DNA from: Eubacteriales bacterium
GTDB taxonomy: Bacteria; Bacillota; Clostridia; Oscillospirales; CAG-382
NCBI GenBank assembly: GCA_045589515.1
Contig: JAZNPH010000025.1
Span: 4,034-68,033, forward strand
Direction of reading: 5' to 3'
Length of the DNA stretch: 64,000 bases
Shown here piece after piece: positions 36,230 through 60,872 of the stretch (its first letter is position 1; each line of letters begins with the position of its first letter). Made by a program: the position numbers and the translations under genes. The notes under the pieces were generated by a model. That model did no database searches and had not been told where the DNA came from. It saw nothing but the letters and a program-made list of their open reading frames with translations.

Positions 36230-36331
36230 ATTTGCCTCCTTTTTAAGCGCCGCAAGGTTCGCGGCTCTTTTTGTCACGGTCAGTATACCATATCGTTAGG
36301 AAAAACACAAGTGGTCAGGCTTATTTTTTAC

Positions 36332-36365
36332 AAAAAAAGAAGGCAACTTTTGCGTTGCCTTCTTT
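36332..36365 (-). terminator. Rho-independent terminator closing the 24-kb surface-protein operon
   Basis: There is a 12-bp stem, AAAGAAGGCAAC (36336-36347) / GTTGCCTTCTTT (36354-36365). It is followed on the minus strand by a run of seven T. It lies 8 nt after the stop of the dockerin gene. Confidence 0.75.
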
Positions 36366-36372
36366 GAAAAAA

Positions 36373-38556
36373 TCAATTTTCGGGAGTCCACTTGCCAAGC
36401 AAGTAGGATTTCAGCTTGAAATAGTCGGTTTTATTGACCTTGCCGTTGCCGTCGATATCGCTTCTGGCAAACATGCCGTCGTCAAAGGCGATATCTTTGC
36501 CCAGCAGGTAGGACTTCAGCTTGAAGTAGTCTGTCTTGGCGGCCTTTCCATCGCCGTCCACGTCACCAAAGACAAACGCGGGCTCTTCCTGCTCGAAATA
36601 GTAGCAAGCGAACATCCAAGCGTCATCCAGATTACCGCCGACCCAGCCGTCTTCACCATACCAATCCTGATACTTACCAACGCTTTGGAAAATGATCATC
36701 AGGTCCTCAGTCAGGGGATAATATGCGGTCTCATCGGTACATGCGAGGTATTCTCCGAATGCTTCGTTGTAGTTAATCTTCTGCACAACGGTATCGCCAT
36801 CATAGATTACATCCTTCAACTGCCCGTATTCCATTGCACCGGCTAGGCTCATGAGAGGATCGCTGAGGCAAGCATACAGGAGAGGACCGTTGGCGTTGCC
36901 AAGGTGATAATAACCATCCACACCGAGAACGGCCACGTCACAGACACCGTCAAAGGTATCTACATACAGAAGGGCATCTTCATCCCCCTCAAAGCTGAAG
37001 GGTACAGGGGTGAACTTGTTTTCATAGATGGTCCACGGAATCTCAACAATGACGATTTCTTCCTTTTCGATGGTGAGGAAGATTCCGGGCTCATCGGAAA
37101 TGGCCGCTACCAGAATGGACTGTCCAACATCCTTGCATTCCCATTCGAAGGTGCTTTCCGTAACGGTTTCTGCAGAGGGCTCGATGGTGACCCACATACC
37201 GTTGTAGCTGACCAGAGCAACATAGCCGTTGGCGGCAGTAAAGGTATACTTGCCGACCTCAGTGGGCTCAAAGTAATACACGGTATACATATACTCGGGA
37301 TCAAGCTCGCACTCGTTATCCCCAACGGAAAGAACGACATCGGACCAGAAGTAGCCTTCCGTTTTTCCATCGCCGGTGGGAGGGGTTACGGGCTCATCGG
37401 GAACGTCTACGGGAGGATCTACGGGATCTTCGCCTTCACCGGGGGTAAAGGTTAAGCTCCAATGCAAGGTTCCGGCAGGGTTATTCCACATATCTGCAGG
37501 GTCGTAGGTGGCAACCATCACGGTCACAACGTCGCCTGCGGATACGGAATGGCTCTCGGTGGAGACAACAGTCTCGTCATCACTCCAATGGGTATCGCCG
37601 TAGACAAAAGTCTCGTCGGCACGCAAAATATTCAAGTTATACTGCCAGCTTTCATCCAGCATGGCAACGGATACGGTCCCGTTTGCGGCGGCGGTCCAAG
37701 TGTAGTGATACCCCTGGTTACCCGCTTCCAGCACAGCGGTATACTCCCCTGCGGTAATTTCCTGAGGGAAATTCATAGAGCCAATGGCATCAAAGGATGC
37801 ATTGACGGAGACAGAGCCGGCAGGATTGCTCCACATATTGTTGGGATCGTAGGTGCTGACAAACAGAACGACCTCGTCGCCTGCAGACACTTTTACAGAC
37901 TCGTAGTTAACGGGAATCTCGTCGTCGCTCCAATGGATATCGCCATAGATGCCTGCGGTCACGTTGTTTAAAAAGTAAAGCCAGCCAACGGGCATATACT
38001 CTGCGTCAAACGCGCTGAGGTTGGCGGTGAAGTAACCGTCGGAAGTAGCGGTCCAGGAATAGTAGTAGCCCTCGTTGCCCGCATCAAGGTCCTTCGTTAA
38101 AAATGCGCCGAGATTGCCGAACCAATCCTTTTCCAAAAGGATCTCTTCGGGATTATCCATGGTTCCTGCACCTGCGAGAGCGCCTGCGGCCAGCTTCAGA
38201 TACACCACCACGTCGGTCTCGCCGCTGTTATAGACGGAGAAGACGTCGGAGAAGGCGTTCATGGTAAACTCTGCGGTGCCGTCTGCGCCGGGATACACGC
38301 TCTGTCTGCCATACTGCAGGAAATAGCCGTCGCTTGTTGCGTGGCCGACGGTGACGGTGGAGTTGTCACATTGATCCACCTTCACGTAAGCCTCTGTTCC
38401 GGGAGCAACGGTAATGGGCAGAGGGGTCATGCTGTCTGCATACAACAGGTAGGGATTCTCGTAAGTGCCGAGATCAGCATTCTCGGCGAGAACTGCCATA
38501 GGCGTGACAGTCAGAATCACTGCCATAAGCAGGCTAAGAAGTTTCTTCATAGTCAT
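36373..38556 (-). CDS. Secreted multi-domain protein with C-terminal type I dockerin
   Basis: It has a type I signal peptide (TPMAVLA-EN) and several beta-sandwich repeats, including an internal duplication. It carries the shared DGYYH...YPLTEDL...CYY module. The C-terminus has two EF-hand-like dockerin segments, DVDGDGKAAKTDYFKLKSYLLG and DIDGNGKVNKTDYFKLKSYLLG. Confidence 0.7.
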   Translation of the reverse strand: MTMKKLLSLLMAVILTVTPMAVLAENADLGTYENPYLLYADSMTPLPITVAPGTEAYVKVDQCDNSTVTVGHATSDGYFLQYGRQSVYPGADGTAEFTMNAFSDVFSVYNSGETDVVVYLKLAAGALAGAGTMDNPEEILLEKDWFGNLGAFLTKDLDAGNEGYYYSWTATSDGYFTANLSAFDAEYMPVGWLYFLNNVTAGIYGDIHWSDDEIPVNYESVKVSAGDEVVLFVSTYDPNNMWSNPAGSVSVNASFDAIGSMNFPQEITAGEYTAVLEAGNQGYHYTWTAAANGTVSVAMLDESWQYNLNILRADETFVYGDTHWSDDETVVSTESHSVSAGDVVTVMVATYDPADMWNNPAGTLHWSLTFTPGEGEDPVDPPVDVPDEPVTPPTGDGKTEGYFWSDVVLSVGDNECELDPEYMYTVYYFEPTEVGKYTFTAANGYVALVSYNGMWVTIEPSAETVTESTFEWECKDVGQSILVAAISDEPGIFLTIEKEEIVIVEIPWTIYENKFTPVPFSFEGDEDALLYVDTFDGVCDVAVLGVDGYYHLGNANGPLLYACLSDPLMSLAGAMEYGQLKDVIYDGDTVVQKINYNEAFGEYLACTDETAYYPLTEDLMIIFQSVGKYQDWYGEDGWVGGNLDDAWMFACYYFEQEEPAFVFGDVDGDGKAAKTDYFKLKSYLLGKDIAFDDGMFARSDIDGNGKVNKTDYFKLKSYLLGKWTPEN
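36391..36576 (-). other. Dockerin module (two 22-residue Ca-binding repeats)
   Basis: This covers aa 661-722 of the 727-aa protein. The D.D.DG.....D loop followed by an amphipathic helix occurs twice. The duplication is also visible at the DNA level (...CAGCTTGAAATAGTC... / ...CAGCTTGAAGTAGTC...). Confidence 0.7.
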
Positions 38557-38586
38557 TTGGGTTGCCTCCTGTTATTTGATTTGTTT

Positions 38587-39639
38587 TTAAGAGAGATATT
38601 CTGCGCACCAGGTAATCACGGTAGCGGGATACTTCCCTCTTCTGTTGGGAACTGCGCCCATATTGATGGAAAGATCATCCCCAGCTTCCACGGCAACATC
38701 AAAGTAGATCCTGCCCTGTTCGTCAACGGTATCCACGCCGTCGGAGCTAACCTGTACGTAACTGCGGTTATTAGTGACTCTGATAAAGCTGTCCACAGTC
38801 GCGGAAAGATAGAATCGAACGGTGCCATCCTTTACCGCTGTATGGCGATAGAAATAACCGATGTCATTTCCAGCTTCCAGAGAAACTACCGTATCTTCGG
38901 CCATAGACTCCTTAAGCTCGGCATTGCCCATAGAACCCAAGGGGATGGTGAACTTCAAGACAAAAGACTGCTCAGAGGTGCCGTTATTGCCTATTTCAAA
39001 GCCGATAGGAGCGCTGGCAAGCGCTCTTTCCACACGAAGAGTAAGAACTCCGTCAACGGGAGTATAGGTTACGCCCTCGTAGATCACGTAAACGTCGGCA
39101 GACTCGATGGTAAGATCCATGCCACCAACACGGTAAATACCAAAGAAGGCAGTGGTGCCGGGTTGGATCTTCACGGTGGTCACGGGGGTGTTCTCGTGGG
39201 GAATATACAGGTAGGGATCTTCCTCGGTGCCGGAGCCATCGGGAATAATCTCTTCGGGTTCAGAAGGATCTTCGGAGGGCTCATCCGGCTCAGAAGGCTC
39301 TACGGGCTCTTCGGAAGACTCATCGGGCTCGGAGGGCGCCTCGGAAGGCTCTTCAGAAGGTTCTTCGGAGGGTTCTTCGGAAGGCTCCACAGAAGGCTCC
39401 TCGGAGGGTTCTTCGGAAGACTCCACAGAGGGCTCCTCGGAGGGTTCTTCGGAAGATTCTTCAACAGAAACGGCCTCGGAAGAGATAGCTTCCGAAGAGG
39501 CATCGGCACTTTCTTCCTTGGATTCAACACCCGTGCTCACCTCGGGAGGAAGCTCCTCGGAGCAACCGACCAAAGCGAGAGAAAGCAGGCAAGTCAAGAG
39601 CAAGGAAGCGGCAAGACAAAGTAACAGTTTCTTATTCAT
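38587..39639 (-). CDS. Lipoprotein with long acidic (P-S-E-E)n linker and a beta-sandwich domain
   Basis: It has the signal/lipobox LSLALVG-CSEE. Residues 59-130 are almost pure SEEP/SEPD repeats. The C-terminal domain begins GTEEDPYLYIP, resembling the GTYENPYLLY / GTMDNPEEIL domain starts of the dockerin protein. Confidence 0.6.
   Translation of the reverse strand: MNKKLLLCLAASLLLTCLLSLALVGCSEELPPEVSTGVESKEESADASSEAISSEAVSVEESSEEPSEEPSVESSEEPSEEPSVEPSEEPSEEPSEEPSEAPSEPDESSEEPVEPSEPDEPSEDPSEPEEIIPDGSGTEEDPYLYIPHENTPVTTVKIQPGTTAFFGIYRVGGMDLTIESADVYVIYEGVTYTPVDGVLTLRVERALASAPIGFEIGNNGTSEQSFVLKFTIPLGSMGNAELKESMAEDTVVSLEAGNDIGYFYRHTAVKDGTVRFYLSATVDSFIRVTNNRSYVQVSSDGVDTVDEQGRIYFDVAVEAGDDLSINMGAVPNRRGKYPATVITWCAEYLS
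39250..39465 (-). repeat. In-frame tandem repeat encoding acidic Pro-Ser-Glu low-complexity linker
   Basis: GAAGGCTCTTC / GGAGGGTTCTTC-type 12-nt units reiterate. The translation is EEPSEEPSVESSEEPSEEPSVEPSEEPSEEPSEEPSEAPSEPDESSEEPVEPSEPDEPSEDPSEPEE. Confidence 0.7.
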
Positions 39640-39641
39640 AA

Positions 39642-40082
39642 TCAGTTACCCTTGGTCAAGGTCAGGGTGTATTCGGTAGCGCCGTATTCCAGATGGATCT
39701 CGGCCTCGCCCTCGTAGGTATACCCCTCAGGGAGCGTCATCACAGACAGTTTATAACCGTCGGTGATCTCAACGTTGAAAACAGCGACGCCGTCCTCGCC
39801 GCTCATAGAGGGCATGCAGGAATCCTTGCAGATCTGCACCATAGCGCCGGAGACGGGATTGCCGTCCTGATCCACTACGGTGACAGAGAACTTGGGAGCT
39901 TCGGGCACAGAGGTCTCGGAAGACTCGTTCTCCACAGCCTCGGAAGAGGTGTTTGCTACGCTCTCCGCAGAAGATTCTGCGGGAGCAGAGGTCTCGTTCT
40001 GCTCGCCGCAAGCCACCAAGCAAAGAAGCATGGTCAGACCCAAGACAAGAGCAAGAAGTCTTTTGGTGAGTTTCATATTCAT
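39642..40082 (-). CDS. Small lipoprotein consisting of an acidic linker plus one carboxypeptidase-regulatory-like beta-sandwich domain
   Basis: It has the lipobox CLVA-CGEQ and a Ser/Glu-rich linker. This is followed by FSVTVVDQDGNPVSGAMVQICKDS....GEDGVAVFNV..GYKLSV..LPEGY, the pattern of CarboxypepD_reg/prealbumin-like folds. Confidence 0.55.
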   Translation of the reverse strand: MNMKLTKRLLALVLGLTMLLCLVACGEQNETSAPAESSAESVANTSSEAVENESSETSVPEAPKFSVTVVDQDGNPVSGAMVQICKDSCMPSMSGEDGVAVFNVEITDGYKLSVMTLPEGYTYEGEAEIHLEYGATEYTLTLTKGN

Positions 40083-40092
40083 TTTCTCCTTT

Positions 40093-40977
40093 TCAGGGAT
40101 TCATTTCTTCGATGCTTTGGTAGGTTCTTTGCACATACTCGTCGGAAGTAACGTAAGCAAACAGACTGGAGAAGGTTTCCGCATCCGTCACAGCGCCGAT
40201 ATGCACCAGACAGATCATTCCATAACGGTCAATGACAACCGTTGTAGGATAAGCTCGGAGATTCATAGCAGTTTGCCAATACAACTCCTCGGAAGCGACG
40301 GGAAATGTCAATCCCATTTGCTCCGCATATGAGGAAACTGTGGCGTCGGTGCCATCGTAAGGATTGATGGCAATGACCTCCAGACTGTCTTTATACTGCA
40401 AATATGCTTGTTCCAGGTAAGGAAATTCCATACGGCAAGGGCCGCAACCGATGAACCAGAAGTTCAGCACGACAGCTTTCCTCTCTTTCAGAAGATCTGC
40501 GATGGAAAGCTGTGTGCCATCGGTACAGGTAACGCTGAGATTGGGAACAATGCTCCCGACACGTAGGGAAAGCGTGGTAAGGTCTTCCACTTCATAAGGA
40601 ACTGCTTGAACGGTGATCGTGGTTTCCGTTCCGGTAACGGGGTAATACGATTCACCGCAATATCCGGGATCTTCCGGATACAGAACCGCAACGTAAGAAT
40701 CGGATAACGGCGCACGGAAAGTGAAATTCCCTTCCCTGTCCGTCATAGCGGCATACACAAGATCGGTGAGGGAAGAATCCTCGTAAACCTTGACCAAAAC
40801 GTCGCCAAACTTCATTCCGCCTTCGGTTTGGAAGGTGAGCGTATAGTCTGCGAAATCGGATTCCTTGGAGGGCGCGGTGCTTTCTTCGAGAGCAGGATCA
40901 CACCCGACAAAGGAAAGGATCGCGATCATCAGCAGCCAAGAAAGTGCTGTGCGTAAATATTTCTTCTTATTCCACAT
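40093..40977 (-). CDS. TlpA/ResA-like thiol-disulfide oxidoreductase lipoprotein (CarboxypepD_reg-like domain plus thioredoxin fold, CGPC)
   Basis: It has the lipobox SFVG-CDP and a beta-sandwich (YTLTFQTEGGMKFGDVLVKVYED...DREGNFTF). The thioredoxin fold reads KAVVLNFWFIGCGPCRMEFPYLEQAY...YPTTVVIDRYG. I verified the CGPC codons at 40435-40446. Confidence 0.8.
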   Translation of the reverse strand: MWNKKKYLRTALSWLLMIAILSFVGCDPALEESTAPSKESDFADYTLTFQTEGGMKFGDVLVKVYEDSSLTDLVYAAMTDREGNFTFRAPLSDSYVAVLYPEDPGYCGESYYPVTGTETTITVQAVPYEVEDLTTLSLRVGSIVPNLSVTCTDGTQLSIADLLKERKAVVLNFWFIGCGPCRMEFPYLEQAYLQYKDSLEVIAINPYDGTDATVSSYAEQMGLTFPVASEELYWQTAMNLRAYPTTVVIDRYGMICLVHIGAVTDAETFSSLFAYVTSDEYVQRTYQSIEEMNP

Positions 40978-42226
40978 AGCAACACATCAACAGCCACGCG
41001 ATATCATGGTTGATACCGGGCTCGGGGTTGCCGTCCATATCCACGAAAAGGTAGGCTCGGCTTTCGGGATCCCACCAGCCCTGGTAATCACCATGCTGCT
41101 GTACAATATACTTCAGATCCTCGGTCAGGGGGTATACCCCCATGGCTTCGTCGGCACAAGCAATGTATTCCGCGAGACACTGGGAATAGGATTCCTTCTT
41201 TGTAAATTTCCCTTCCTCATCGTAGAAATACTTGGTAACGCCGGTGTGTTCCAGGATGGTCTGATAGGAATCCATATACTCGCTGTCCTCGGAAAGGCGC
41301 ATAAGCACCAGGGGACCGTCTGCGGAATCCAGATGGTAGAAGCCGTCGGTTTCATTGTACACCAAGGTGTATTCCTTAGTAAAATCAAATTCCTTTAAGG
41401 TCGCTCCTGCGGGAAGTTGATAAGCTTCGGGAGCTTTCACGGCCTCGTAAACTGTCCAGGGCTCATCCTCGATGGTTTTGATGGGATCGCCGATACGGCG
41501 GATACCAAAGATGCAAGAGGTCTCGATATCTGCATCCACACCAAGCACCAGCACGTTGGTGCCACCTTCGCCGCTTCCGATCATGGAAGCTTTGATGGAT
41601 ACGGTGAACACGTTATCGGTGACGGTTGCAACACTGTTTTCCATCACGTAATGCGGAGAACCGTAGTAGCCGACGGTTGCTTTGGTCTCTCCGATCAGAG
41701 AGAACTCAAAGTTACCGGCAACGGTGGGAGTAAACAGGAAGTAGTTCCGAACACCGGGGGTGAGCTCTACGTAGGTGGTTCCGATCCCTAAAGGATACGT
41801 CTCGATATCAGAAGAACTTACGGTAATCGCTTGAGACTCCGCAGTGATCCTGCCGCAGAGAGTCACTTCCGCAGAAGTGACCTCGGCAGTTACAGTGGTT
41901 TTTTCGTAGTAATGGTTCTCTTCTCCGTCGGAGAACGCAAGAGAGATTTCGTATTCCCCGGCAGTAAGGCTTTTGCTTGCAACGCCGTTTGCATCGCAAG
42001 GCTGCATGGCAACACGCTCACCGTTCTGCAAGAACTGCACGGCCACACCTGCTGTGCAGGGATCGCCGAACGCATCCTTAACGGTGACGGTGTAGGTAAG
42101 CTCCCCGGCAGGGGCAGAAGATTCCGGCTGAGAAGTGCCCTCCCCAGAGGAAGAGCAGGATCCCAGAAGCATTGCTACCGCCAGCAAGGCGGCTAAAATG
42201 TAGGTTTTCAAGTTCTTATTGATCAT
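40967..42226 (-). CDS. Modular lipoprotein (CarboxypepD_reg-like domain, beta-sandwich, shared C-terminal DGFYH...YPLTEDL...CCY module)
   Basis: It has the lipobox LLGS-CSSS and YTVTVKDAFGDPCTAGVAVQFLQNGERV...DANGVAS. Its C-terminal 165 aa are paralogous to the dockerin protein and to the 927-aa protein. Confidence 0.6.
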   Translation of the reverse strand: MINKNLKTYILAALLAVAMLLGSCSSSGEGTSQPESSAPAGELTYTVTVKDAFGDPCTAGVAVQFLQNGERVAMQPCDANGVASKSLTAGEYEISLAFSDGEENHYYEKTTVTAEVTSAEVTLCGRITAESQAITVSSSDIETYPLGIGTTYVELTPGVRNYFLFTPTVAGNFEFSLIGETKATVGYYGSPHYVMENSVATVTDNVFTVSIKASMIGSGEGGTNVLVLGVDADIETSCIFGIRRIGDPIKTIEDEPWTVYEAVKAPEAYQLPAGATLKEFDFTKEYTLVYNETDGFYHLDSADGPLVLMRLSEDSEYMDSYQTILEHTGVTKYFYDEEGKFTKKESYSQCLAEYIACADEAMGVYPLTEDLKYIVQQHGDYQGWWDPESRAYLFVDMDGNPEPGINHDIAWLLMCCYVE

Positions 42227-42241
42227 GGCATTTACCCGTCA

Positions 42242-45025: not shown

Positions 45026-45058
45026 TCAAATTTTCCTCCCGGATGAATGAGTGTGTGG

Positions 45059-45304
45059 TCAAACGAGCCAAAAGATCAAAGCCACGATGAGAAAGGCGAC
45101 TGCAAGGAAGCCCACGGCAACAAGGGTGGGTAAAAGCATCATACGTACTGCGCTCCAATAGGTGCGCCAGATGTCGCCGACAGAGGACGTGGTACCGCTC
45201 CCCCAGCGGCTTTTCCCCGCGGAAACGCCTGACATATCCGCAATGGTCCTGCCGTCGTCGATATAATGCACTTTTTCCTTTTTGGACTTGTCTTTCTTCA
45301 TCAT
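45059..45304 (-). CDS. Small tail-anchored membrane protein, unknown function
   Basis: The 81-aa protein has a Lys-rich N-terminus (MMKKDKSKKEK) and a C-terminal TM helix (LLPTLVAVGFLAVAFLIVALIFWLV). It is packed 13 nt after the ABC ATPase gene and 33 nt before the 927-aa lipoprotein gene. Confidence 0.45.
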   Translation of the reverse strand: MMKKDKSKKEKVHYIDDGRTIADMSGVSAGKSRWGSGTTSSVGDIWRTYWSAVRMMLLPTLVAVGFLAVAFLIVALIFWLV

Positions 45305-45317
45305 GAACGCTTTTTCC

Positions 45318-47460: not shown

Positions 47461-47463
47461 AGC

Positions 47464-48507: not shown

Positions 48508-48519
48508 AAAGATACCTCC

Positions 48520-49512: not shown

Positions 49513-49526
49513 GGGTCACACCCGCT

Positions 49527-52118: not shown

Positions 52119-52149
52119 ACCTTCCTATGTGAAAATTTTAAATACGTAT

Positions 52150-53457
52150 TTACTCGGCGAAAGTCAGCGTGACCTTGTTGCCGTCAACAGCAACGGTGAT
52201 GCGATCGGGAGTGTCGCCCACAACGGAGCAAGTGATCTCCGCATCGGAGAGAGCGACTTCGCCCATGCCGCACACCAGGCCGATGGAATAGTCGTCAACG
52301 CCGAAATAGCAGGAGGAATCGATCTGCAAAGCGGAGTTCAGGATCTTTACTTGCTCCAGAACCGCTTCGGCGGAAACGGTGCCTGCCAAAAGACCGTAGT
52401 TGGTGCCCGCTACGCGGGTGCCGGATTGGACGGTGAAGGTAACGTTTTCAAACGTCAGATCCTTGATGGAAGCCTTCTCCGTCAACTGACCGAACAGCCC
52501 TGCGTTCGCCTTGGAGTTGTTGGTCTGTGCGAAAGAAACGTTTTTGATGGTGTGGCCGTTGCCTTTGATCTCGCCGCTGAAATTACCGTACATAAAGGTA
52601 GTGGGCCAGATCTCCTCGGAGAAATCCAGGTCGGCACAAATTTCGTAGTGGCCGTTCAGGTTGGCGTTATCTGCCAGCTGTTCGGCGGTATAGATGCGGT
52701 ACCATTCCCCTTCCGTGTACTCCACGTAAAGTTTCAGCACGGAATCCTTGGCAGTACCGTTCTCGTAGTCGATCACACCGGGATGCACTACGTTTTCGGT
52801 ATCCAGCACCTTGGTAAAGCCGTCGTCGTAATAGGCGGCGGTGAAGGTGTAGCCCTTGCGAGAGGGGAACTTATGCATCTCAAGAGTACCTGTCTCCGTA
52901 TTCCATACAGGAGATGCGATGGTCTCGGTGGTAGGATCGAAATCCAAAGACTCAAGCACTTCCCCGGTGGTCTTGTCGCAGAATTGGATCTCGAAGCGAG
53001 GAATCCACGCGGCATACAGAGTGAGCACGGGAGTTGCGGAGGAATGGACGGCGTTGGGATCAACGGTTACCAGATCGGTATCGAACTCCCACTTTTCGCC
53101 GTAGGTATACTCCCCGTCGGCAACCTCATTGCGAACGGCGTACCAGCCGGCAAGGAAATAACCGGGTCTGGAGACCGCAAAGGCATCGTTGCCGCGGAGG
53201 GGATCGTCGGGAGAAAGCAGGGCGATCTCCGCCTTGCCTTCTCCGTTTTTGTGAAGATTTGCGGGATTGAAGGAATCCACGATCACGGAAGAATTGGTGG
53301 TAAAGGTGCCGCCGTTGGCATCAAACCTGACGCTGACGGTATACCCCTCCAAATCGTTCTTCTCGTAGGGCGTGGGCTCGGCACTGCACCCGGTGATGAG
53401 GAGCAATGCGAAAACGCAAAGCAACGGGAAGAGGATGCTTTTGATGAATTTTTTCAT
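52150..53457 (-). CDS. Lipoprotein with Listeria-Bacteroides (InlB B-type) repeats and a beta-helix/GLUG-like C-terminal half
   Basis: It has the lipobox LLIT-GCSAE -> ITG-C. The repeats are YTVSVRFDANGGTF.... / GYFLAGWY and KGYTFTAAYYD. The C-terminal part (F.GEIKGNGHTIKNVSF......AGLFGQL....IKDLTFENV) resembles parallel beta-helix repeats. Confidence 0.55.
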   Translation of the reverse strand: MKKFIKSILFPLLCVFALLLITGCSAEPTPYEKNDLEGYTVSVRFDANGGTFTTNSSVIVDSFNPANLHKNGEGKAEIALLSPDDPLRGNDAFAVSRPGYFLAGWYAVRNEVADGEYTYGEKWEFDTDLVTVDPNAVHSSATPVLTLYAAWIPRFEIQFCDKTTGEVLESLDFDPTTETIASPVWNTETGTLEMHKFPSRKGYTFTAAYYDDGFTKVLDTENVVHPGVIDYENGTAKDSVLKLYVEYTEGEWYRIYTAEQLADNANLNGHYEICADLDFSEEIWPTTFMYGNFSGEIKGNGHTIKNVSFAQTNNSKANAGLFGQLTEKASIKDLTFENVTFTVQSGTRVAGTNYGLLAGTVSAEAVLEQVKILNSALQIDSSCYFGVDDYSIGLVCGMGEVALSDAEITCSVVGDTPDRITVAVDGNKVTLTFAE

Positions 53458-53485
53458 ATAAGTCTTATAGTCTCCTTCCCGTTAG

Positions 53486-56400
53486 TTACTGTGTGGGAAC
53501 GGGGTCGATGGGATCTTCCTTTTTCAGGACGCCCTGGAGGCAATAGATGGTCAGAACGAACACAGCCACCAGGGAGAAGAGGAGAGCCACTTCCCCGGGG
53601 TTACCCTTGGATGCGGTAGAATCATTGCCGGGAATATCCTCTACGGGAGGCGTCAAGGCCAGAATACGCTGTTCGGCGGATACCAGAACGTCGTAATTGG
53701 TGACCAGTGCCTGCTGTTCCAGGGTCGCGATCTTATCATAAGCAGCACGGGCGGCTTCCACGATAGCCTTATCCTCGTAGGATACCTTCTCAGGAATGGC
53801 GTTGATTGCCTTGATGGCGGCAATGGTCACGTCATCGGGAGCTGCGGGGCCTTGGATGCGGTAGCCGAAGTACTGGTCGCAAATGAAGGAATCGTAGCCG
53901 ACGCCGTTGACGGGGCTGACCATGATCACCTTATTATCCACGTAGCCCACGTAATCCACGAAGTTTGCACCGTAGAAGACGTTGGAGTACTGGCCGCCGG
54001 TGGCGTTCCACATGAAGTAAGGGATCAGACCCATACCGGTGATGGTCACCTCAGTGCCGTCGTAGTCGGTATAATCGCCGTATTCCCCTGCGCCGGGAAC
54101 GTGCTCCAGGGATTCGTAATACGTGGGATCGAACTCCTCTTCCATAATGGGAGCGGTGTAGCTGCCGAAGACCACCAAAGCCAGCTCGTCGCAGGCGTAG
54201 AAGGCCTTGTGGCCGATGGCGATGGTCATATAAGGCATCTTGATGCGCTGTACGTTGCTGCCTGCAAAGGCGTAAGCGGCAATACGTACGGTGTCATCTG
54301 CAACGATCACGTCCTCCGGGGTATAGCCTGCGTAGGTCACAAGCTCCATACCCAAAACGTTCTTGTAGTAAAGAGAGCCATCGATAACGGAAACGGTATC
54401 GCTGATCTCATAGGTGTAGGTAGGCACTTCGTATTCCTTGCCCCCGAAGGTCTCGGTGGTGGTGGATACAAAGGGAGTCAAGGTACACATAGCGAAGGGG
54501 TTATCGCCCAAGGTAGTCAGAGCGTTGCCCAAAGTGACCTTGAAGGGAGTTACCTCTTCCTTGATGAAGGCGTAAGAGCCAAGGGATACCACGCCGGAGA
54601 GATCTGCCTCGGTGAGGGCGATATAAGCAAATGCGTAGTCGCCGATCTCGGTCACGGCGGAGAGGTTCTTCACCTCATCCAACGGATCGCAGTATGCAAA
54701 TGCACCCTCGCCAACGGTGGAGCCGTTGGGATTCAAGGTGACGGATTCCATGAGACGGTTGGAAACGAAGGCGTACTTATCGACCTTGGAAACGGAGGAC
54801 AGATCTACGGATTCCAGGCCGCATTCCATGAAGGCGTATTCGCCGATGGTCTCCACGGACTTCAGATTAATCTTCTTGAGAGCGTCACATCCTGCGAAGG
54901 CGTAGGCGGGGATCTCCTTGATGCCGTCGCCCAGCTTGATCTCTACCATATCGCGGCAGTATGCAAAGGCATATTCGCCGATGCTTGCCGCAGAGGAGAG
55001 ATCCAAGGAAGTGAACTTGGGTCCGTAGTAGGAATAGATGTAATATCCGTCCTTACCTACGGCGGCAACAGTCATGTTGGTATCCATGCAAGCGTAGTAA
55101 ACGTCGCCGGACAGAGCATAGTCGCCGATGGACTTAGCCTTGGAAAGGTCAATGGACTTAAGAGAGCACAGATTGTAGAAGGCCATGTTGCCGATCACAG
55201 CGTTTTTACCCAAAGTGATCTTCTCAAGGCTTGCGGCGTAGGAGAAGGCGTTGTTGCCGATAACTACGTCGTCTCCGATGGTGAGAGAGGTCAGAGCGGA
55301 GGAGAACTTATAACGGAAGTACTTGTCCTCGCCCACATAGAAGCCCTCCACCTCAAAAGCATTATCCTTGTTCAGGCTGAAGGCGTAATCTCCCAGAACT
55401 ACGTTGTCGCCGATGACAACGGTAGCCAGATCCAGACACTCGCTGAAGATCCCTTCCCCTACCGTCATCCCGCTGGGGATGGTAACGGACTGCAGGGAGG
55501 TGTGTGAGAAGGCGTAGTCGCCCATAAAGGCGTCGTTTGCAAAGCCGGGAAGGGTTGTCAGATGAGTCTCGAAGAAGGCGTACGCACCGATGGTGGTAAG
55601 CTTGCCAAGCTTCACAGAAACCAGGTTGGTAGAGGAAGCGAAGCCGTAGTCCGCTACTGCGGTGACCTTTTCCATCACGGCGGAGGTGATCTTCTTGTTG
55701 TGAGACAAAGCACCCTTGCCGACGGTGGTCACGGAAGCGTTGACGTATTCACCGGAAACGTTGGGAGACAGGGCGATAAGGGTCTTTCCGTCGGAGGACA
55801 GAATGTTGTCGGCAGTCTGTGCGCGGTATGCACGGTTGCCGTTTTCCACCAAGAAGGACCCGATCTTGGTCTCGCGGAAGGCGAAGGCGCCGATGTCGTT
55901 CACCTCGGGACCGATGGTAACGGTCTCCATGGCCTTACACTGGTAGAACATACCCTCGGGCAGGACGGCGGAGTTGATGCGGAATTCCTTCAAGGATTCA
56001 CAACCGGTGAAAGCGTATGCACCGTATTTCACCTTATCTGCCTTGACATCTGCGCTTGCAAGCTTCTTACAGCCTGCAAAGGCGTACTGGCCAACGGACT
56101 GCAGAGTGTCCGCCAAAACGATGCCGGACAGGTTCTGGTTTCCTGCAAAGGCGTAGTCGGAGATCACGCAGATGGCATCCAGCGCAAGAGTTCCGCGGAG
56201 GTCGCAGTTCTCGAAAGCGTTCTGGTTGATGATCTTCAGGTTGTTATCACCGCTGAAAGTGATCTTCTTAAGAGAAGTGCAATTGTAGAACGCGCCGTAG
56301 TCGATGGCCTCCAGGGTGGAGGGGAACACGATCTCTTCAAGAGCGGTCAGGTTTGCGAAGGCATAGGAATTGATCTTTTCCACGCCCTCGGGGACGACCA

Positions 56401-59400
56401 CCTTGGTGATAGTGTTGTCACCAATGAACCATGCCTTGGAATTTTCGGCATCGTCAAAGGCAAGCTCTTCCTCCGTCTTCATGATGTATTCGAAGTTGGA
56501 GAAGGCAAACTGGCCGATCTCGGTAAGGGCAAGCTTTGCGGGAATGTCTACCAAGCCGCCGTTGCCGTAATAGTGAGTCAAGCTGGAGCCTGTTTTGATG
56601 TAGGGATCCTTGACCTCTACGGAAACGGTTTCGGAGTAGTAGGTGCTCTTCCCTTCCTGCATGACCTTGACGGTAACGGAAGCGAAGCCTTCCGCAACGG
56701 CGGTAACGATGCCGCTTTGGTCGATCTTGACGATCTTTTCGTTGCTGGATTCGAATTCCACGGTGGTGTCGCCGGGATAATAAGCATCCAGAGAATACTG
56801 CAGCAGAACGGACTCGGAGGGATACATTGCAAGGTTGAAGTTGCCTTCAAAGAAACGGACGTTACCGGTATCGCCGATGTCCTTATCCTCGTTCACCACA
56901 ACATAGTAGGCCTTCAGAGTCTGATAGCCGTCCAGGGTGAATACATCCACAACGGGCTTGTCGTATCTCTCGTAGCCCTCGTCTCCTTCCTTCAATACGG
57001 TGACCTTGAAGGTGACGCTTTCGTTGGTGTTGGGGTCCTGAGCCTTGATGATGGCGTTACCGGAGGAAACAGCCACCAGCTTATTATTTACCACGCGGAC
57101 AACACTGGGCTTGGAGGAGGAGTAGTGGAGCAGCTCGCCCCACTGGGTATAGGGATACACGATGGGCTCCAAAGTGTAAACCTCGTTGGGGCTGAGGGTG
57201 AGACCGTCCTCCAGGCTTTCGAAATAGAACTCGGTGAAGTCGTCGGGAAGAGGGATCTCGAAGGTTGCGGTGTTCAGCGCATAGTCGTAAACACTGACAA
57301 CGAAGCTGTTCTTATTGGTTGCGTTATGCTTAATGTCAAAGAGGTAATCCGTCAGCTCGAAGGTCACACGGGTGGTGCTGTTCTTCTTGGAGTATACGGG
57401 AGTCATATACTGCTCGAAGGACTTCATTTCGGGAGTGGGATTGCCGTTTTCGTCCTGACCCGTGGTGACATAGCCAAGCTGTGCGCTCATGGCGTAGTGG
57501 TTGTCGTAGATCAGCACGTCGGCGTAGAGACGGTTCTTCTTCAAGGTCTTGTCGTACTCGTAGTAATACTCTACGTCGGTAACGGTGGGAGCCTGGAAGT
57601 CGATGGTCAGAGGGAATTCAAAGACGTTGTTCTTATTGGTATCCAGGGCACCGTCGCCGTAATCCAGATATCCGGTGAGGGTGACGATGAACTGAGTGTT
57701 ATTGGCAAAGTTATAATTTGCGGTATCGAACTCTATCTCAATATTAGAGGGGTAGATGGAAGGTCCGCCGTCGCTGTAGGACTTACGCACCATATCGTCC
57801 ACACAGGTGAAGACCACTTCCCCGGTGGTGGCGTTGGAGATGGCCACTTCGATACGTTCGGCGTTACGAAGCATACCTGCCCAGACAAAGCGCAGGGAGT
57901 GGATGGTGCCGTCCTTATTGGAAAGGGCGATGTACTGCTCGTTGGCGGCGATCACCATGTCCTTGGGATCCTGCAGGAAATAGTAGGAGCCCAGGTAGCT
58001 GACGTAGTCCTCGCTGACACCGCCGACGGGACGGGTAGCGTAGGCGTCTGCCATGGTCTTGTCTTCAAAGTCGATGCCGTCATCCAGCTCGTCTGCGTTG
58101 GTATCGTAATAGGTCAGATCGAAGAGAGGCGCAACGGTCCAGTCACCGTAGAAGGCAAGGTAGGGAACGTTCAGGTCATATTCGGTGCCTGAGGTAGCGG
58201 TGAGGGTGATGTAGCCCTCCACATACATACCGTTTTCAAAAGATTTGTTCAGATAAGCTTTATCCGCATCGGACAGGGTGACGGTGACGGTGACGTCCAG
58301 GCTATCGCCGCCGTAAACGGTAACGGTGTTCCCCTGAAGGTGGCCGCCATTATTGTCCTTGGAGGTGACGGTAACGGTAGCACCGTCCAGAATGTAAGAT
58401 TCCTCGGTAACGGTGGTCTTACCTGCGCCGGTCTTGGTGTCGCTGACTCCCTCGGTCATTACGTAGGCGCCAAGGTCGTAGGAAACGGTTGCATCGCCGA
58501 AGTTGTTAATGGTGAAGGTCATCTCGTAGACGCCGGTCTTGGAGGGGTCGTCCCCAAGCTCCAGCTTGGCCTTGTCCATCAGGTTGCCGTTCTTGTCCAG
58601 GGTGGTGATGTAGGCAGGGGTGTTCAAAGCGTTGGAAAGGCTACCCAGACCTGCGCCCTGCTTACGAACGGAATAAGGAAGGCCGTTTTTGCCAAGGGCG
58701 ATGTCTGCGGTGGACATGAGAAGTCCGTTGACCATGGCATTGACCTTGTTGTTATCGTTTGCGATCTCGGGGAAATTCTCCACCACATACTGACGGAGAA
58801 GAACTACCACGCCTGCCAGGTTGGGGCAAGCCATGGAGGTGCCGGAAAGACGGTCGTACCCGCCGCCGGTAACAGAGGACAGGATGCTACCGCCGTGAGC
58901 GGTGATCTCGGGCTTAATGCGGAGATCGGGAGTGGGGCCCCAGGAGGAGAAGTCGGAGATAAAGGGACCGGAGGTCTGGGAACGGCTGATCAACAGCTTG
59001 CCACTACCCACAGCCGCCAGCATTTCGCCGTCGTCCTGGGAGATGGAACACACCGCAAGGGTGGTCTCACCCACGTTCATTTTGATATCGCCGGACACAT
59101 TATTATATATGATGATACCTGCCGCGCCCTGTTCCTGGGCGATGATGGCTTTTTCCTCGAAGGTGTTGGAACCGCGGCGTACCAGGGCGATCTTGCCCTT
59201 CACGTCCATACCGGTATAGTCGGCGGATCTACCCACGCCGGGGATGAGGACGAATTCCAGCTCGGCGGAATCCTTGTCTCCCAAAAGGGTATCGAAGAAG
59301 TTATTCTCTTCACTGGAGGAATTAACGGATTCGGTGAAGTACACGATGGTCTCGCCATATTTGATGTAAGGAGTCTCCACGCCGCTGATGGAAGCAACGG

Positions 59401-60673
59401 AAAGAACGCCCTCGTAGGTGGAGGGAGAACCAACCGTGCCGGTATCGGGGTTGGAAGTCAGACCCAGGTTACCGTTGGCTTCGGAGCCTTGAGAGGAGCT
59501 GTAGCTGTTGGAGGCGGCGACTACCATGCTGATGCCCGCCTTACGGATCTTTTCGTAGATGCCGTTGACAGCCTCTTCATCGGTCTCGCGGGAGAAGCCG
59601 CAGGCGGTACCGATGGACATATTGATCACGTCCACGCCCAAGACTACACAGTCCTCAAGAGCGGCCATAACCCATGCGGTTCTGGTGGTATCCATCACGT
59701 CGGAGAAGATCTTCATGGAAACCAACTGTGCGTTGGGTGCAACGCCGCGGATGGTATCGTCGTTACCCACGATAACGCCGGATACGTGAGTACCGTGGTT
59801 ATTATGGGTGGAATATACGTCGGAGTCGTTGTCGGCATAGTCAAAGCCGAAGGGAACCTTTTCGTTGATGTATACGTCGTCTACAGTAATACCCTTCAAG
59901 AGGTCGTAAGCGGTGGTCTTCTCCACAAGAGACGCCACTTCGTCATAAGTCAAGCCCAGATGAGTAGAGGTAAAGTTATCGGGAGAGAAAGCGGTATGCT
60001 TAGAGTCGAGACCGGTGTCCAGAACGGCAACAACCATGCCGCTGCCGTCGTAGCCCGCATCGGAGCTGTCAAAGATACCCGTATCAAAAACGTCCACTTC
60101 GTTTTCCACCAGCTGGGTCTCTGCGGCATTATATACCTCGCCGACAATGACACCTCTGCCTTCCCCCAAGGCGCTGCAGGTGGTAGCAAAATCCCCGGCT
60201 CTGATCAAAAGCTCAAAGCCACTGACAACGGTAGAGTATTCCTCGCCCAAACGGTAGGAAACGCCCTTCTTCTCCAGATTGGAGAGAACCTGAGATTTCT
60301 CCGCGGCAATGGAGGCTCTGATGCCCTTGGCATCCTCGCTCTCCGTGATGTATTCGGCAAAGCTCATGGTCTTACCGGAGCGTTCATAAGCGTCCATCAT
60401 GCTGATGGTGTCCACGGTGACGATCACAGAGATCTCCTCGCTGTCCTTGATGCCGGAGGGCAAGGGGAACATGACGGAGTTATTCAAATACTTCTGGTAA
60501 TCCAAGGACAATCCTTCCAGCTGCTTAATGGAATAGGGATTATCGACCTTGGCGGAGGTAAGGAGTTCGGTCAAATTCAAAATAGGCGCGACCAAAGTCC
60601 CCGCCAACAGGACGGGCACCAGCAAGGCCGCAAGGCTATTCTTCCATCTTTTTGAGAAAATTCTTCTGTTCAT
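53486..60673 (-). CDS. Giant membrane-anchored subtilisin-family (S8) cell-envelope protease with PA insert, Ig-like (Big_2-type) domains and a BspA-type leucine-rich-repeat region of about 800 aa
   Basis: The start at the ATG 60671-60673 (MNRRIFSKRWK..., RBS AGAGG) gives 2,395 aa. The triad motifs are VAVLDTG (Asp, 60017-60019), HGTHVSG and SGTSMACP (Ser, 58835-58837). A PA-like insert lies between them (GKIALVRRG..F.EK...A...GA.G.IIYN). Big_2-like segments span about 56606-57214. Repeated ...IG.YAF..C..L..I.L... units span about 54152-56569. The C-terminal TM helix ALLFSLVAVFVLTIYCLQGVL lies at 53528-53596, and there is no LPXTG. Confidence 0.85.
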   Translation of the reverse strand: MNRRIFSKRWKNSLAALLVPVLLAGTLVAPILNLTELLTSAKVDNPYSIKQLEGLSLDYQKYLNNSVMFPLPSGIKDSEEISVIVTVDTISMMDAYERSGKTMSFAEYITESEDAKGIRASIAAEKSQVLSNLEKKGVSYRLGEEYSTVVSGFELLIRAGDFATTCSALGEGRGVIVGEVYNAAETQLVENEVDVFDTGIFDSSDAGYDGSGMVVAVLDTGLDSKHTAFSPDNFTSTHLGLTYDEVASLVEKTTAYDLLKGITVDDVYINEKVPFGFDYADNDSDVYSTHNNHGTHVSGVIVGNDDTIRGVAPNAQLVSMKIFSDVMDTTRTAWVMAALEDCVVLGVDVINMSIGTACGFSRETDEEAVNGIYEKIRKAGISMVVAASNSYSSSQGSEANGNLGLTSNPDTGTVGSPSTYEGVLSVASISGVETPYIKYGETIVYFTESVNSSSEENNFFDTLLGDKDSAELEFVLIPGVGRSADYTGMDVKGKIALVRRGSNTFEEKAIIAQEQGAAGIIIYNNVSGDIKMNVGETTLAVCSISQDDGEMLAAVGSGKLLISRSQTSGPFISDFSSWGPTPDLRIKPEITAHGGSILSSVTGGGYDRLSGTSMACPNLAGVVVLLRQYVVENFPEIANDNNKVNAMVNGLLMSTADIALGKNGLPYSVRKQGAGLGSLSNALNTPAYITTLDKNGNLMDKAKLELGDDPSKTGVYEMTFTINNFGDATVSYDLGAYVMTEGVSDTKTGAGKTTVTEESYILDGATVTVTSKDNNGGHLQGNTVTVYGGDSLDVTVTVTLSDADKAYLNKSFENGMYVEGYITLTATSGTEYDLNVPYLAFYGDWTVAPLFDLTYYDTNADELDDGIDFEDKTMADAYATRPVGGVSEDYVSYLGSYYFLQDPKDMVIAANEQYIALSNKDGTIHSLRFVWAGMLRNAERIEVAISNATTGEVVFTCVDDMVRKSYSDGGPSIYPSNIEIEFDTANYNFANNTQFIVTLTGYLDYGDGALDTNKNNVFEFPLTIDFQAPTVTDVEYYYEYDKTLKKNRLYADVLIYDNHYAMSAQLGYVTTGQDENGNPTPEMKSFEQYMTPVYSKKNSTTRVTFELTDYLFDIKHNATNKNSFVVSVYDYALNTATFEIPLPDDFTEFYFESLEDGLTLSPNEVYTLEPIVYPYTQWGELLHYSSSKPSVVRVVNNKLVAVSSGNAIIKAQDPNTNESVTFKVTVLKEGDEGYERYDKPVVDVFTLDGYQTLKAYYVVVNEDKDIGDTGNVRFFEGNFNLAMYPSESVLLQYSLDAYYPGDTTVEFESSNEKIVKIDQSGIVTAVAEGFASVTVKVMQEGKSTYYSETVSVEVKDPYIKTGSSLTHYYGNGGLVDIPAKLALTEIGQFAFSNFEYIMKTEEELAFDDAENSKAWFIGDNTITKVVVPEGVEKINSYAFANLTALEEIVFPSTLEAIDYGAFYNCTSLKKITFSGDNNLKIINQNAFENCDLRGTLALDAICVISDYAFAGNQNLSGIVLADTLQSVGQYAFAGCKKLASADVKADKVKYGAYAFTGCESLKEFRINSAVLPEGMFYQCKAMETVTIGPEVNDIGAFAFRETKIGSFLVENGNRAYRAQTADNILSSDGKTLIALSPNVSGEYVNASVTTVGKGALSHNKKITSAVMEKVTAVADYGFASSTNLVSVKLGKLTTIGAYAFFETHLTTLPGFANDAFMGDYAFSHTSLQSVTIPSGMTVGEGIFSECLDLATVVIGDNVVLGDYAFSLNKDNAFEVEGFYVGEDKYFRYKFSSALTSLTIGDDVVIGNNAFSYAASLEKITLGKNAVIGNMAFYNLCSLKSIDLSKAKSIGDYALSGDVYYACMDTNMTVAAVGKDGYYIYSYYGPKFTSLDLSSAASIGEYAFAYCRDMVEIKLGDGIKEIPAYAFAGCDALKKINLKSVETIGEYAFMECGLESVDLSSVSKVDKYAFVSNRLMESVTLNPNGSTVGEGAFAYCDPLDEVKNLSAVTEIGDYAFAYIALTEADLSGVVSLGSYAFIKEEVTPFKVTLGNALTTLGDNPFAMCTLTPFVSTTTETFGGKEYEVPTYTYEISDTVSVIDGSLYYKNVLGMELVTYAGYTPEDVIVADDTVRIAAYAFAGSNVQRIKMPYMTIAIGHKAFYACDELALVVFGSYTAPIMEEEFDPTYYESLEHVPGAGEYGDYTDYDGTEVTITGMGLIPYFMWNATGGQYSNVFYGANFVDYVGYVDNKVIMVSPVNGVGYDSFICDQYFGYRIQGPAAPDDVTIAAIKAINAIPEKVSYEDKAIVEAARAAYDKIATLEQQALVTNYDVLVSAEQRILALTPPVEDIPGNDSTASKGNPGEVALLFSLVAVFVLTIYCLQGVLKKEDPIDPVPTQ

Positions 60674-60811
60674 CGGGACCTCTTTTCTGATTTGGGCATA
60701 ATACGACACATACATATTCATTATATATTACAATATTTTTTCAAAAAAAGCAATAGCATTATCACATTTTTTTGATATTTAATTTTTTGTTCATCTTTTT
60801 TCGTCAAAACA

Positions 60812-60840
60812 TTTACTTTCGCGAGAACTTGTGGTATACT
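60812..60840 (+). promoter_or_regulatory. Sigma-A promoter with extended -10 for the CxxC-membrane-protein / polyferredoxin-thioredoxin operon
   Basis: TTTACT (60812-60817), a 17-nt spacer, then TGG-TATACT (the hexamer is 60835-60840, with TG at -15/-14). It lies inside the AT-rich divergent region and invalidates the GTG 60831 start of the listed ORF. Confidence 0.5.
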
Positions 60841-60872
60841 CTTTGTTACGAATGAACGATGGGAGCTTCCTT

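Follow-up and report, generated by a model that had tools for sequence, protein, structure and literature searches.

What do a very large cell-surface protease, an oligopeptide-type importer, and a series of lipid-anchored thioredoxins do side by side in a single bacterial locus? The question is raised by a stretch of 64,000 nucleotides from an Eubacteriales bacterium of the order Oscillospirales (GenBank assembly GCA_045589515.1, contig JAZNPH010000025.1, positions 4,034 to 68,033), hereafter the window, to which all positions below refer. Between 60673 and 36373, fourteen open reading frames (ORFs), numbered g1 to g14 in the direction of transcription, follow one another on the minus strand. 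A sequence-only reading of the window had taken these genes to be the whole of one integrated operon, whose products would bind a proteinaceous substrate, reduce its disulfides, cleave it, and import the peptides. We find that the unit comprises sixteen genes, because the two divergent genes at 60874–63128 also belong to it. The sixteen genes fall into three blocks, centered on a protease, an importer, and thioredoxins, which we consider very probably to be functionally coupled.

In the model that we propose, the first block, for proteolysis, would consist of the transmembrane (TM)-anchored S8 subtilase g1, which is of the cell-envelope proteinase (CEP) type and carries BspA-type leucine-rich repeats (LRR), and its partner lipoprotein g2. 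The second block, for import, would comprise the oversized family-5 lipoprotein g3, the permeases g4 and g5, the ATPases g6 and g7, and the tail-anchored protein g8. The third block, for extracytoplasmic thiol reduction, would be made up of a NapH–thioredoxin fusion (NapH-Trx), its partner with five TM segments and an outward-facing CXXC tail, the thioredoxin lipoproteins g9 and g11, and the modular proteins g10 and g12–g14. Low-potential cytoplasmic electrons, presumably from ferredoxin or quinol, would enter the Fe-S clusters of NapH-Trx and pass to its fused outer thioredoxin, which may hand them on to the thioredoxin domains of g9 and g11. These would in turn reduce disulfide bonds in a macromolecular substrate, probably a protein, which jelly-roll domains, a module of ~150 residues, and the LRR region would hold. 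The opened substrate would then be cleaved by g1, and the resulting peptides would be bound by g3 and imported by g4–g7, as the family assignments of these proteins suggest. This proposition, which leads from capture of a macromolecule through disulfide reduction and cleavage to peptide import, is the best supported of the readings, and we hold it to be evenly balanced. The earlier idea of reduction, cleavage, and import gains from the conserved linkage of the genes, from reductase-type motifs, and from a candidate electron source, but stops short of proof.

Conservation and gene order

The signature protein of the locus is g9, a lipoprotein of 927 residues encoded at 42242–45025. More than 120 full-length homologues of g9 were found at 65–93% identity, all of them from uncultured Ruminococcaceae or Clostridia; the nearest relatives (95%, 94%, and 93%) are in three metagenome-assembled genomes (MAGs), the first of them from sheep rectum. 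Scanning one genome per species for g9 yielded 74 loci, every one in a MAG and nearly all in Clostridia (Oscillospiraceae, Acutalibacteraceae, 'Ca. Fimenecus', 'Avispirillum', Faecousia, and Ruminococcus), with the gut of sheep, goat, deer, buffalo, and yak as the named sources. Gene neighborhoods were compared by tblastn of all window proteins against 77 loci (L001–L077).

The layout of the window recurs in separate species at 55–95% g9 identity, and the cassette formed by g9–g13, usually together with g14, is almost always intact. In the arrangement of the window type (arrangement A), g2–g8 lie directly upstream of g9; this is the case in 20 of the 50 loci with at least 3 kb of upstream sequence, and every flank that extends far enough shows the end of g1. 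Arrangement B, seen in 12 loci, has the cassette first, then the NapH-Trx gene and its CD1871A-type partner on the opposite strand, and then g1 where the flank suffices. Other orders also occur: the Opp block is convergent with g9 in L049, and the genes follow in the order g9, g11, g12, g1, g2, g3 in L051. The pair of CD1871A-type and NapH-Trx genes was divergent from the S8 gene, with g2 and the substrate-binding protein (SBP) gene next in line, in all five relatives sampled (NapH-Trx identity 57–87%). Two of these five contigs are those of the arrangement-A loci L014 and L036, which thus carry the pair together with S8, g2, and SBP, so that separate species share with the window the layout of all 16 genes. 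The junction that joins the NapH pair to S8 varies less than the one that joins Opp to the cassette. Opp, NapH-Trx, or S8 genes were found beside the cassette in 21 of the 29 loci with ~10 kb on both sides, and this linkage through at least three gene-order permutations argues for functional coupling of the blocks. Distant g9 homologues from Christensenellales (29%) and from an Acholeplasmatales MAG (33%) likewise lie beside CD1871A-type, NapH-type, and Opp-type genes.

The other eight of these 29 loci, in which none of S8, Opp, and NapH occurs within 10 kb of the cassette, and the cassettes of L002 and L003, which also lack Opp, NapH-Trx, and S8 alongside, bring in the main rival explanation. 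According to this, two independent systems are neighbors: a nutrition unit of CEP and Opp, and an envelope unit for thiol-redox maintenance or oxidative stress that would keep the cell's own surface proteins reduced in a strict anaerobe. The separate transcription unit formed by the cassette in arrangement B fits such an explanation, as does the surface thioredoxin lipoprotein repair pathway of Streptococcus pneumoniae (CcdA-Etrx1/Etrx2-MsrAB2; PMC3914529), two members of which, Etrx1 and Etrx2, also match g9 in structure. However, neither within the locus nor next to it is there an Msr gene or any other evident client, and it is S8, not the cassette, with which the NapH pair has a control region in common, in the window as in every relative sampled. 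Moreover, the linkage persists through several permutations, and the arrays of jelly-rolls and modules on the thioredoxin lipoproteins are typical of substrate capture and not of a housekeeping reductase. We consider two independent neighbors to be rather improbable. As for the sequence-only reading, the neighborhood conservation for which it proposed a test holds for protease, Opp, and thioredoxin cassette across many species, the lone cassettes excepted, whereas its single integrated operon proves to be lineage-specific, since arrangement B sets the cassette apart as a unit of its own, on the other side of the opposite-strand NapH pair from S8–Opp.

One of the distant loci, in the Acholeplasmatales MAG (L072, 4394–6934, plus strand), contains an ORF of 846 residues in which a NapH-like ferredoxin, a TM segment, a thioredoxin remnant, and the C-terminal half of a g3-like SBP are joined; the g9-like protein (33%) and a CD1871A-type gene precede it, and a g4-like permease follows. 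We considered and set aside this NapH–SBP fusion as proof of physical coupling, because a thioredoxin remnant devoid of cysteines and half an SBP may reflect decay or an assembly artefact.

Thioredoxin domains and their candidate electron supply

Three proteins of the unit contain a thioredoxin domain. The motif region reads FWYTTCTWCLEEFP in g9, FWFIGCGPCRMEFP in the 294-residue lipoprotein g11 (40093–40977), where an immunoglobulin (Ig)-like domain accompanies it, and FWGTWCTPCVNELP in the NapH fusion. The Redoxin and AhpC-TSA families match both lipoproteins, and ResA is the best match by sequence for all three domains. As all scores fall under the cut-off for the ResA subfamily (for g11, 86.6 bits compared to 170), the domains are relatives of ResA and not orthologues. 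When g11 is aligned on ResA (1st9/4nmu), the CXXC motif, the Glu of EFP, and the cis-Pro coincide. Only g9 was compared structurally; the best fold match of its modelled thioredoxin domain is again ResA (Foldseek TM-score ~0.8), and the matches also include Etrx1, Etrx2, and the iron-uptake thioredoxin FetE. Both g9, with the motif CTWC, and g11, with CGPC, are predicted to face outward through their lipobox anchors, and the earlier description of them as thioredoxin lipoproteins was correct, with ResA/TlpA as their type by sequence.

The two genes that diverge from g1 offer a candidate source of electrons. The first, at 60874–61619 on the plus strand, encodes a Cys-rich CD1871A-type protein (NF040920, 36.1 bits, cut-off 32) with five hydrophobic segments, whose last 38 residues form a CXXC domain ending in NICTECIGLG. 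This tail (KA.NICTECIGLG) is conserved in ~90% of 21 homologues, and the gene is always paired with a NapH-Trx gene. The second, at 61632–63128 on the plus strand, encodes NapH-Trx itself, in which a NapH/MauN-type membrane ferredoxin is fused to a ResA/TlpA-like thioredoxin with the motif WCTPC (Fer4_5, 53.7 bits; Fer4_7; Redoxin; Thioredoxin; TIGR02163, 85 bits; ResA, 51 bits; ResA 4nmu, 5e-12). CX3CP motifs are found at residues 99, 159, and 213; a fourth match, at 269, belongs to the second of two C-x2-C-x2-C-x3-C (4Fe-4S) motifs, at 241 and 263. TM segments span residues 80–98, 132–150, 195–213, and 308–326. With K-rich sequence before the last TM helix and an acidic, Ser-rich linker after it, the positive-inside rule places the thioredoxin outside and the Fe-S part in the cytoplasm. 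Among the window ORFs scanned, neither a CcdA/DsbD nor an Msr domain turned up, which leaves the fusion as the obvious candidate electron source. It is plausible that NapH-Trx and the CD1871A-type protein form a dedicated electron supply for the thioredoxins of g9 and g11, and we consider it somewhat more likely than not that this branch acts as a reductant and receives its electrons from the NapH fusion.

The breadth of the NapH-Trx family, which has at least 7997 matches at E ≤ 1e-10, with '4Fe-4S binding protein' as their sole annotation, compared to 1557 for the g9 family, suggests a more general role. Together with the assignment to a family of respiratory electron-transfer components, this would suit an explanation in terms of redox balance, in which NapH-Trx dumps surplus reducing equivalents on extracellular disulfides, a kind of disulfide respiration, and the protease and importer harvest the products. 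The locus contains no quinone-related or energy-coupling genes, however, and in each of the five contexts sampled NapH-Trx is linked to S8–Opp. We regard an electron sink as very unlikely to be the primary purpose of the locus, although it would be compatible with the proposed model and does not exclude it.

Some features of the pair stand apart from this argument. Of the 12 cysteines in the CD1871A-type protein, several lie beside prolines in predicted TM helices (AVPVCIFP, VMVPCLLVP), a pattern that the PCxxP motifs of CcdA/DsbD resemble. As the TM cysteines are conserved in just 57–71% of the 21 homologues, an analogy with CcdA is retained only as speculation. Variants of NapH-Trx of ~650 residues with two tandem thioredoxin-like domains also exist (P0274–P0283; L079, 10001–11995), and in L079 this variant sits between S8 and an inverted cassette.

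The protease and its partner lipoprotein

The first gene of the array, g1 (53486–60673), encodes a subtilase of 2395 residues. Its catalytic motifs are VLDTG at 233, HGTHV at 309, and GTSMA at 627; the S8 domain (Peptidase_S8, 150 bits) spans 226–691, with a PA domain inserted at 499–568, and is followed by fn3_5 at 729–855, Big_2, and a BspA-type region of LRR_5 repeats of ~900 residues. The C-terminus consists of a TM helix (2377–2395) and a charged tail, and no LPXTG sortase anchor was found there. Residues 200–860 have C5a peptidase (7edd, 9e-66; aligned over 203–853), SpyCEP, and CEP A as their closest solved relatives (9e-66 to 1e-51), whereas the NCBIfam model SGO_0316 matches with 256 bits, below its cut-off of 1400. 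By these similarities g1 is assigned to the cell-envelope proteinase class of S8 subtilases, but without LPXTG. The longest ORF starts at 60721; an AGAGG ribosome-binding site and the lengths of the called homologues (2380–2396 residues in four loci and 2426 in a fifth) favor the start at 60673, the one chosen in the sequence-only reading.

Because C5a peptidase and SpyCEP cut specific host immune peptides and not bulk protein, these relatives could be taken to point to a defensive role, directed at antimicrobial peptides or toxins that disulfides stabilise (defensins, bacteriocins, or plant thionins, for example) and comparable to that of Sap/Dpp-type resistance transporters. The steps would be the same as in the proposed model. 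However, a 24-kb locus with many large capture proteins looks like one for nutrient foraging, there is no regulator or sensor in the locus, and conservation extends across sheep, goat, deer, buffalo, and yak hosts. Defence is in our judgment extremely unlikely.

Between S8 and SBP, in a position that is always conserved, lies g2 (52150–53457), a lipoprotein of 435 residues (lipobox ITGC) without an assigned fold. The family search for g2 gave nothing significant (best Pectate_lyase_5, E = 0.07, and Flg_new, E = 0.096), and the 'B-repeat' label once given to it was based on a sub-threshold match, since Flg_new reaches 13 bits compared to a cut-off of 27.

The importer

Proteins g3–g7 form the full component set of an Opp/Dpp (PepT) importer, namely a family-5 SBP, two permeases, and two oligo_HPY ATPases. 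The SBP is the 863-residue lipoprotein g3 (49527–52118), which has a split match to SBP_bac_5 (94 bits). It is followed by the OppB-type permease g4 (48520–49512; BPD_transp_1_N and BPD_transp_1), the OppC-type permease g5 (47464–48507; OppC_N and BPD_transp_1), the OppD-type ATPase g6 (46312–47460), and the OppF-type ATPase g7 (45318–46319), both ATPases with ABC_tran and oligo_HPY domains. Orthologues of g3 measure 854–862 residues at 76–98% identity, and all contain an insertion of ~330 residues. A profile of these orthologues matched in the PDB only AppA (3e-11), Lmo0135, Lactococcus lactis OppA, and one unnamed SBP of an ATP-binding cassette transporter (5u4o); the Opp4A score of 90 bits is below the cut-off of 650, and weak matches to NikA were obtained as well. 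The solved relatives AppA, Lmo0135, and OppA provide modest evidence that the ligand of g3 would be a peptide.

The 81-residue protein g8 (45059–45304), anchored by a TM segment at 60–78, had no family match in the domain scans. It is conserved at 41–99% identity and always follows OppF, even in L049, where Opp is inverted relative to g9, and it may be an uncharacterised accessory of the Opp importer.

The C-termini of g6 (46312–46430) and g7 (45318–45440) are rich in cysteine, the stretch in g7 reading CRFHTRCPHAKDIC...CAAC. The Cys-rich tails of some OppD and OppF proteins bind an Fe-S cluster. By analogy, import might be redox-sensitive if the tails of g6 and g7 do the same.

The lipoprotein cassette and its common module

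The domains of g9 follow in the order Ig-like, thioredoxin, jelly-roll, module, second jelly-roll, and second module. AlphaFold 2 modelled the full-length protein with a mean predicted local distance difference test (pLDDT) score of 80.6, and residues 291–927 with a pLDDT of 83.3 and a predicted TM-score (pTM) of 0.71. In Foldseek, the matches of the full-length model were dominated by thioredoxins. The C-terminal 637 residues matched only jelly-rolls of the carbohydrate-binding module (CBM) and MAM types (CBM16, CBM61), with TM-scores below 0.2 on the query, and no solved homologue of the ~150-residue module was found among the matches of this part.

Next to g9 lies g10 (40967–42226), a lipoprotein of 419 residues (lipobox LGSC) with an Ig-like domain, a jelly-roll, and a 'GYYH...WxxCYY' module, for which the domain scan gave sub-threshold matches to Big_3_5 and Big_1. 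It is followed by the thioredoxin lipoprotein g11, which is 37% identical to residues 7–290 of g9. The 146-residue lipoprotein g12 (39642–40082; lipobox LVAC) has a single Ig-like or CarboxypepD_reg-like beta-sandwich, with weak matches to DUF7382, CarboxypepD_reg, and Big_1, and is often duplicated in relatives. In g13 (38587–39639; lipobox LVGC), a lipoprotein of 350 residues whose position in the cassette is conserved, a long acidic Ser/Glu/Pro linker with a PT repeat match leads to a jelly-roll-like C-terminal part, and 27% identity connects the protein to residues 30–246 of g14. The last gene, g14 (36373–38556), encodes a secreted protein of 727 residues with a signal peptide and no lipobox, which is composed of jelly-roll-like repeats, the module, and a C-terminal dockerin (Dockerin_1, 37.9 bits, cut-off 22.9); its residues 409–655 are 29% identical to residues 146–419 of g10. 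In the g14 orthologue of a 'Ca. Fimenecus' species (L012, 16477–18642), the dockerin is replaced by an IPNTG sortase-type motif, a TM helix, and a basic tail. Judging from these predicted features, related species attach the g14-type protein to the surface by different means.

The C-terminal-type module of ~150 residues is common to g9, g10, and g14 and belongs to no database family. Its conserved positions are D-G-x-Y-H, G-P, Y..D...G.YPL..DL, GWW, and AW.F.CCY. An exhaustive search with the module of g10 (residues 260–419) gave 646 representative clusters, in which the module is nearly always C-terminal. Redoxin/AhpC-TSA domains are present in 28 of 40 long members of the family, the remaining length consisting of Ig-like spacers only, which indicates that the module is a dedicated companion of TlpA-type domains. 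The possibility that the module is itself a second redox center, similar to DsbD-alpha, was weakened by the finding that only the C-terminal cysteine is conserved (74–86%), its partner being present in 34–48%.

The CBM16, CBM61, and MAM-type matches of the jelly-rolls and the dockerin of g14 bear on a further alternative, in which the substrate is not a protein, or only partly so, but for instance a glycan or glycoconjugate, a metal chelate, or haem; the Opp-type transporter would then take up something else than plain peptides, and the thioredoxins would reduce the ligand or a carrier. The weak NikA matches of g3 and its insertion without a match, the presence of FetE among the fold matches, and the known non-peptide ligands of family-5 SBPs agree with this alternative. 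Against it stand the lack of any glycoside hydrolase, lyase, or metal-handling gene in the locus, the 2395-residue CEP-type protease as first gene, conserved together with the importer, and the PDB matches of g3, of which all that are named are peptide binders, besides the one unnamed SBP. A substrate that is not protein, or only partly so, appears quite unlikely to us.

Boundaries and chromosomal setting

The spacing between consecutive genes from g1 to g14 is 28, 31, 14, 12, 3, −8, 13, 33, 15, −11, 10, 2, and 30 nt. The array is closed by an intrinsic terminator on the minus strand, a hairpin at 36365–36336 with a stem of 12 pairs followed by a T-run, which is the strongest terminator-like site within 35000–54000. 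Other terminator-like matches on the minus strand are weak, including one inside g13 (39497–39474), and the total count is 17 compared to 17.8 expected from shuffled sequence; as internal promoters and terminators are at or below the shuffled expectation, they speak neither for nor against internal units. At the other end, g1 and the CD1871A-type gene diverge from an AT-rich control region (60674–60873), where GC is 30% compared to 53% for the locus, and a plus-strand promoter-like site with an extended −10 element lies at 60812–60840. No riboswitch or T-box was found in an Rfam scan of the whole window, and no Rfam family in 60674–60873. A search for the CodY operator gave three consensus matches where 2.2 are expected by chance, none of them in the promoter region, and CodY control was discarded. 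Much of the sequence-only reading is upheld by these data: the fourteen ORFs are present at the coordinates it gave, the gaps lie in the range of −11 to 33 nt, the terminator and the AT-rich upstream region are where it had placed them, seven proteins carry a lipobox (g2, g3, and g9–g13), and Pfam and NCBIfam confirm its calls of S8/PA/Big_2/LRR, SBP, permease, ATPase, thioredoxin, and dockerin domains.

Outside the locus, the window holds ordinary chromosomal genes, among them those for RelA, RecJ, SMC, TopA, CdaA, and alanine racemase; given these housekeeping surroundings of the same GC content, the locus is not a mobile island. Beyond the terminator, at 34500–36277 on the minus strand, are genes for a 303-residue protein without a family match and a Metallophos phosphoesterase, which are placed outside the conserved system since they are syntenic in the closest relatives only (L001 and L004–L007). 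A few kb away, a minus-strand gene at 29030–31153 encodes a protein of 707 residues that matches DUF4855 (240 bits) and Big_9, and F5/8 type C below threshold (20.7 bits, cut-off 28.2); the product is probably surface- or glycan-related and, as far as seen, unrelated to the locus. On the plus strand, a gene for an MFS-type transporter (major facilitator superfamily) starts 18 nt after the NapH-Trx stop and runs off the end of the window (63147–64000). It was rejected as a member of the system, because it is absent from the 77 survey loci, and a homologue (397 residues, MFS_1) was found only in one close relative, L078.

Comparison with known systems

The proteolytic system of lactic acid bacteria (LAB), PrtP plus Opp, resembles the first two blocks in having a surface S8 protease with a PA insert and an Fn3-like domain and a five-component Opp importer with a family-5 lipoprotein, and in the logic of extracellular cleavage followed by peptide import. 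In contrast to the LAB system, protease and Opp lie here in one co-directional array, the protease has a TM anchor and not LPXTG, g1 is extended by the LRR region, g3 is larger by its insertion, and no CodY box exceeds chance. Domain scans of the locus revealed no PrtM-type maturase or PrsA-like domain, which is a feature of the LAB system. Finally, a thiol-reducing branch is attached here, whereas we know of none in the proteolytic system of LAB, and the literature that was searched yielded none. The streptococcal proteases ScpA/ScpB and SpyCEP share the core of catalytic, PA, and Fn3 domains with g1, but they are LPXTG-anchored virulence factors with narrow host targets, whereas g1 is TM-anchored, far larger, rich in LRR, and encoded with an importer in MAGs of gut commensals.

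The thioredoxin lipoproteins resemble the ResA/TlpA/CcmG and Etrx systems, in which lipid-anchored outward-facing thioredoxins with CXXC, Glu, and cis-Pro are likewise accompanied by a membrane electron component nearby. Unlike in the pneumococcal CcdA-Etrx-MsrAB2 pathway, however, no CcdA, DsbD, Msr, or cytochrome-maturation client occurs among the window ORFs scanned; the neighboring membrane protein is instead a NapH-type Fe-S protein fused to a thioredoxin, and, in contrast to ResA and Etrx, the lipoproteins carry up to 640 additional residues of capture domains. NapH-Trx has in common with NapH, MauN, NosR, and CcoG the Fer4_5 domain with CX3CP, two cluster motifs, and four TM segments, but it lacks the NapG, NapC, and NosZ partners and has a C-terminal TM segment with a TlpA-like domain and a CD1871A-type partner. 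The mau cluster pairs MauN with the thioredoxin-like MauD, and MauD is a weak match of g9. An analogy of process is offered by keratinolytic consortia, in which disulfides must be reduced before a subtilisin-type S8 keratinase can act; there, however, reductant and protease do not form one conserved surface locus with an importer, and there is no evidence here that would point to keratin as the substrate.

Strength and scope of the model

Several observations weigh against the model of capture, reduction, cleavage, and import. The match of g3 to peptide binders is weak (3e-11 over ~240 residues), its large insertion matches nothing, and family-5 SBPs also bind nickel, haem, and oligosaccharides; the jelly-rolls of g9, with their CBM- and MAM-like folds, would suit glycans as well. 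NapH-Trx reaches 85 bits where the NapH subfamily requires 213, no nap or mau genes are found in the window, NapH-family proteins are, to our knowledge, not known to reduce thioredoxins, and the path of electrons across the membrane is unexplained. The stand-alone cassettes described above, together with the distant g9 homologues of L074 and L075 (31% and 39%), which lie in unrelated contexts, imply that the thioredoxin branch can work without protease and importer. Every homologue comes from a MAG, and none has a cultured host. That the substrate is a disulfide-rich protein taken up for nutrition seems to us possible, though somewhat short of probable; nothing found here points to the disulfide-rich proteins, mucins, or immunoglobulins that were earlier named as conceivable targets.

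Each component of the locus is of a known kind, but the conserved combination of CEP, Opp, TlpA-type lipoproteins, NapH-Trx, and CD1871A-type protein is new to the searchable literature, where we found no description of it, of CD1871A, or of NapH–thioredoxin fusions; the earlier impression of an undescribed combination stands to this extent. We file the locus as a proteolytic system of CEP and Opp with an added extracytoplasmic reductive branch, the parts of which that are most likely really new are the electron conduit and the TlpA-associated module. With more doubt than confidence, we suggest that NapH-Trx and its CD1871A-type partner constitute a new transmembrane reducing route, based on Fe-S clusters and independent of CcdA/DsbD, that powers extracellular reductive proteolysis in gut Oscillospirales.

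The module may represent a new domain family, for which the TlpA domain is a partner that can be tested. If the model is true, abundant uncultured gut Oscillospirales would possess a dedicated attack on disulfide-stabilised proteins that resist ordinary proteolysis, such as protease inhibitors, storage proteins, mucin domains, and immunoglobulins, which would bear on protein fermentation in the hindgut and on the turnover of host defence proteins. Separately, NapH-Trx would be a new answer to the question of how electrons are delivered to the surface of Gram-positive anaerobes that have no CcdA/DsbD.

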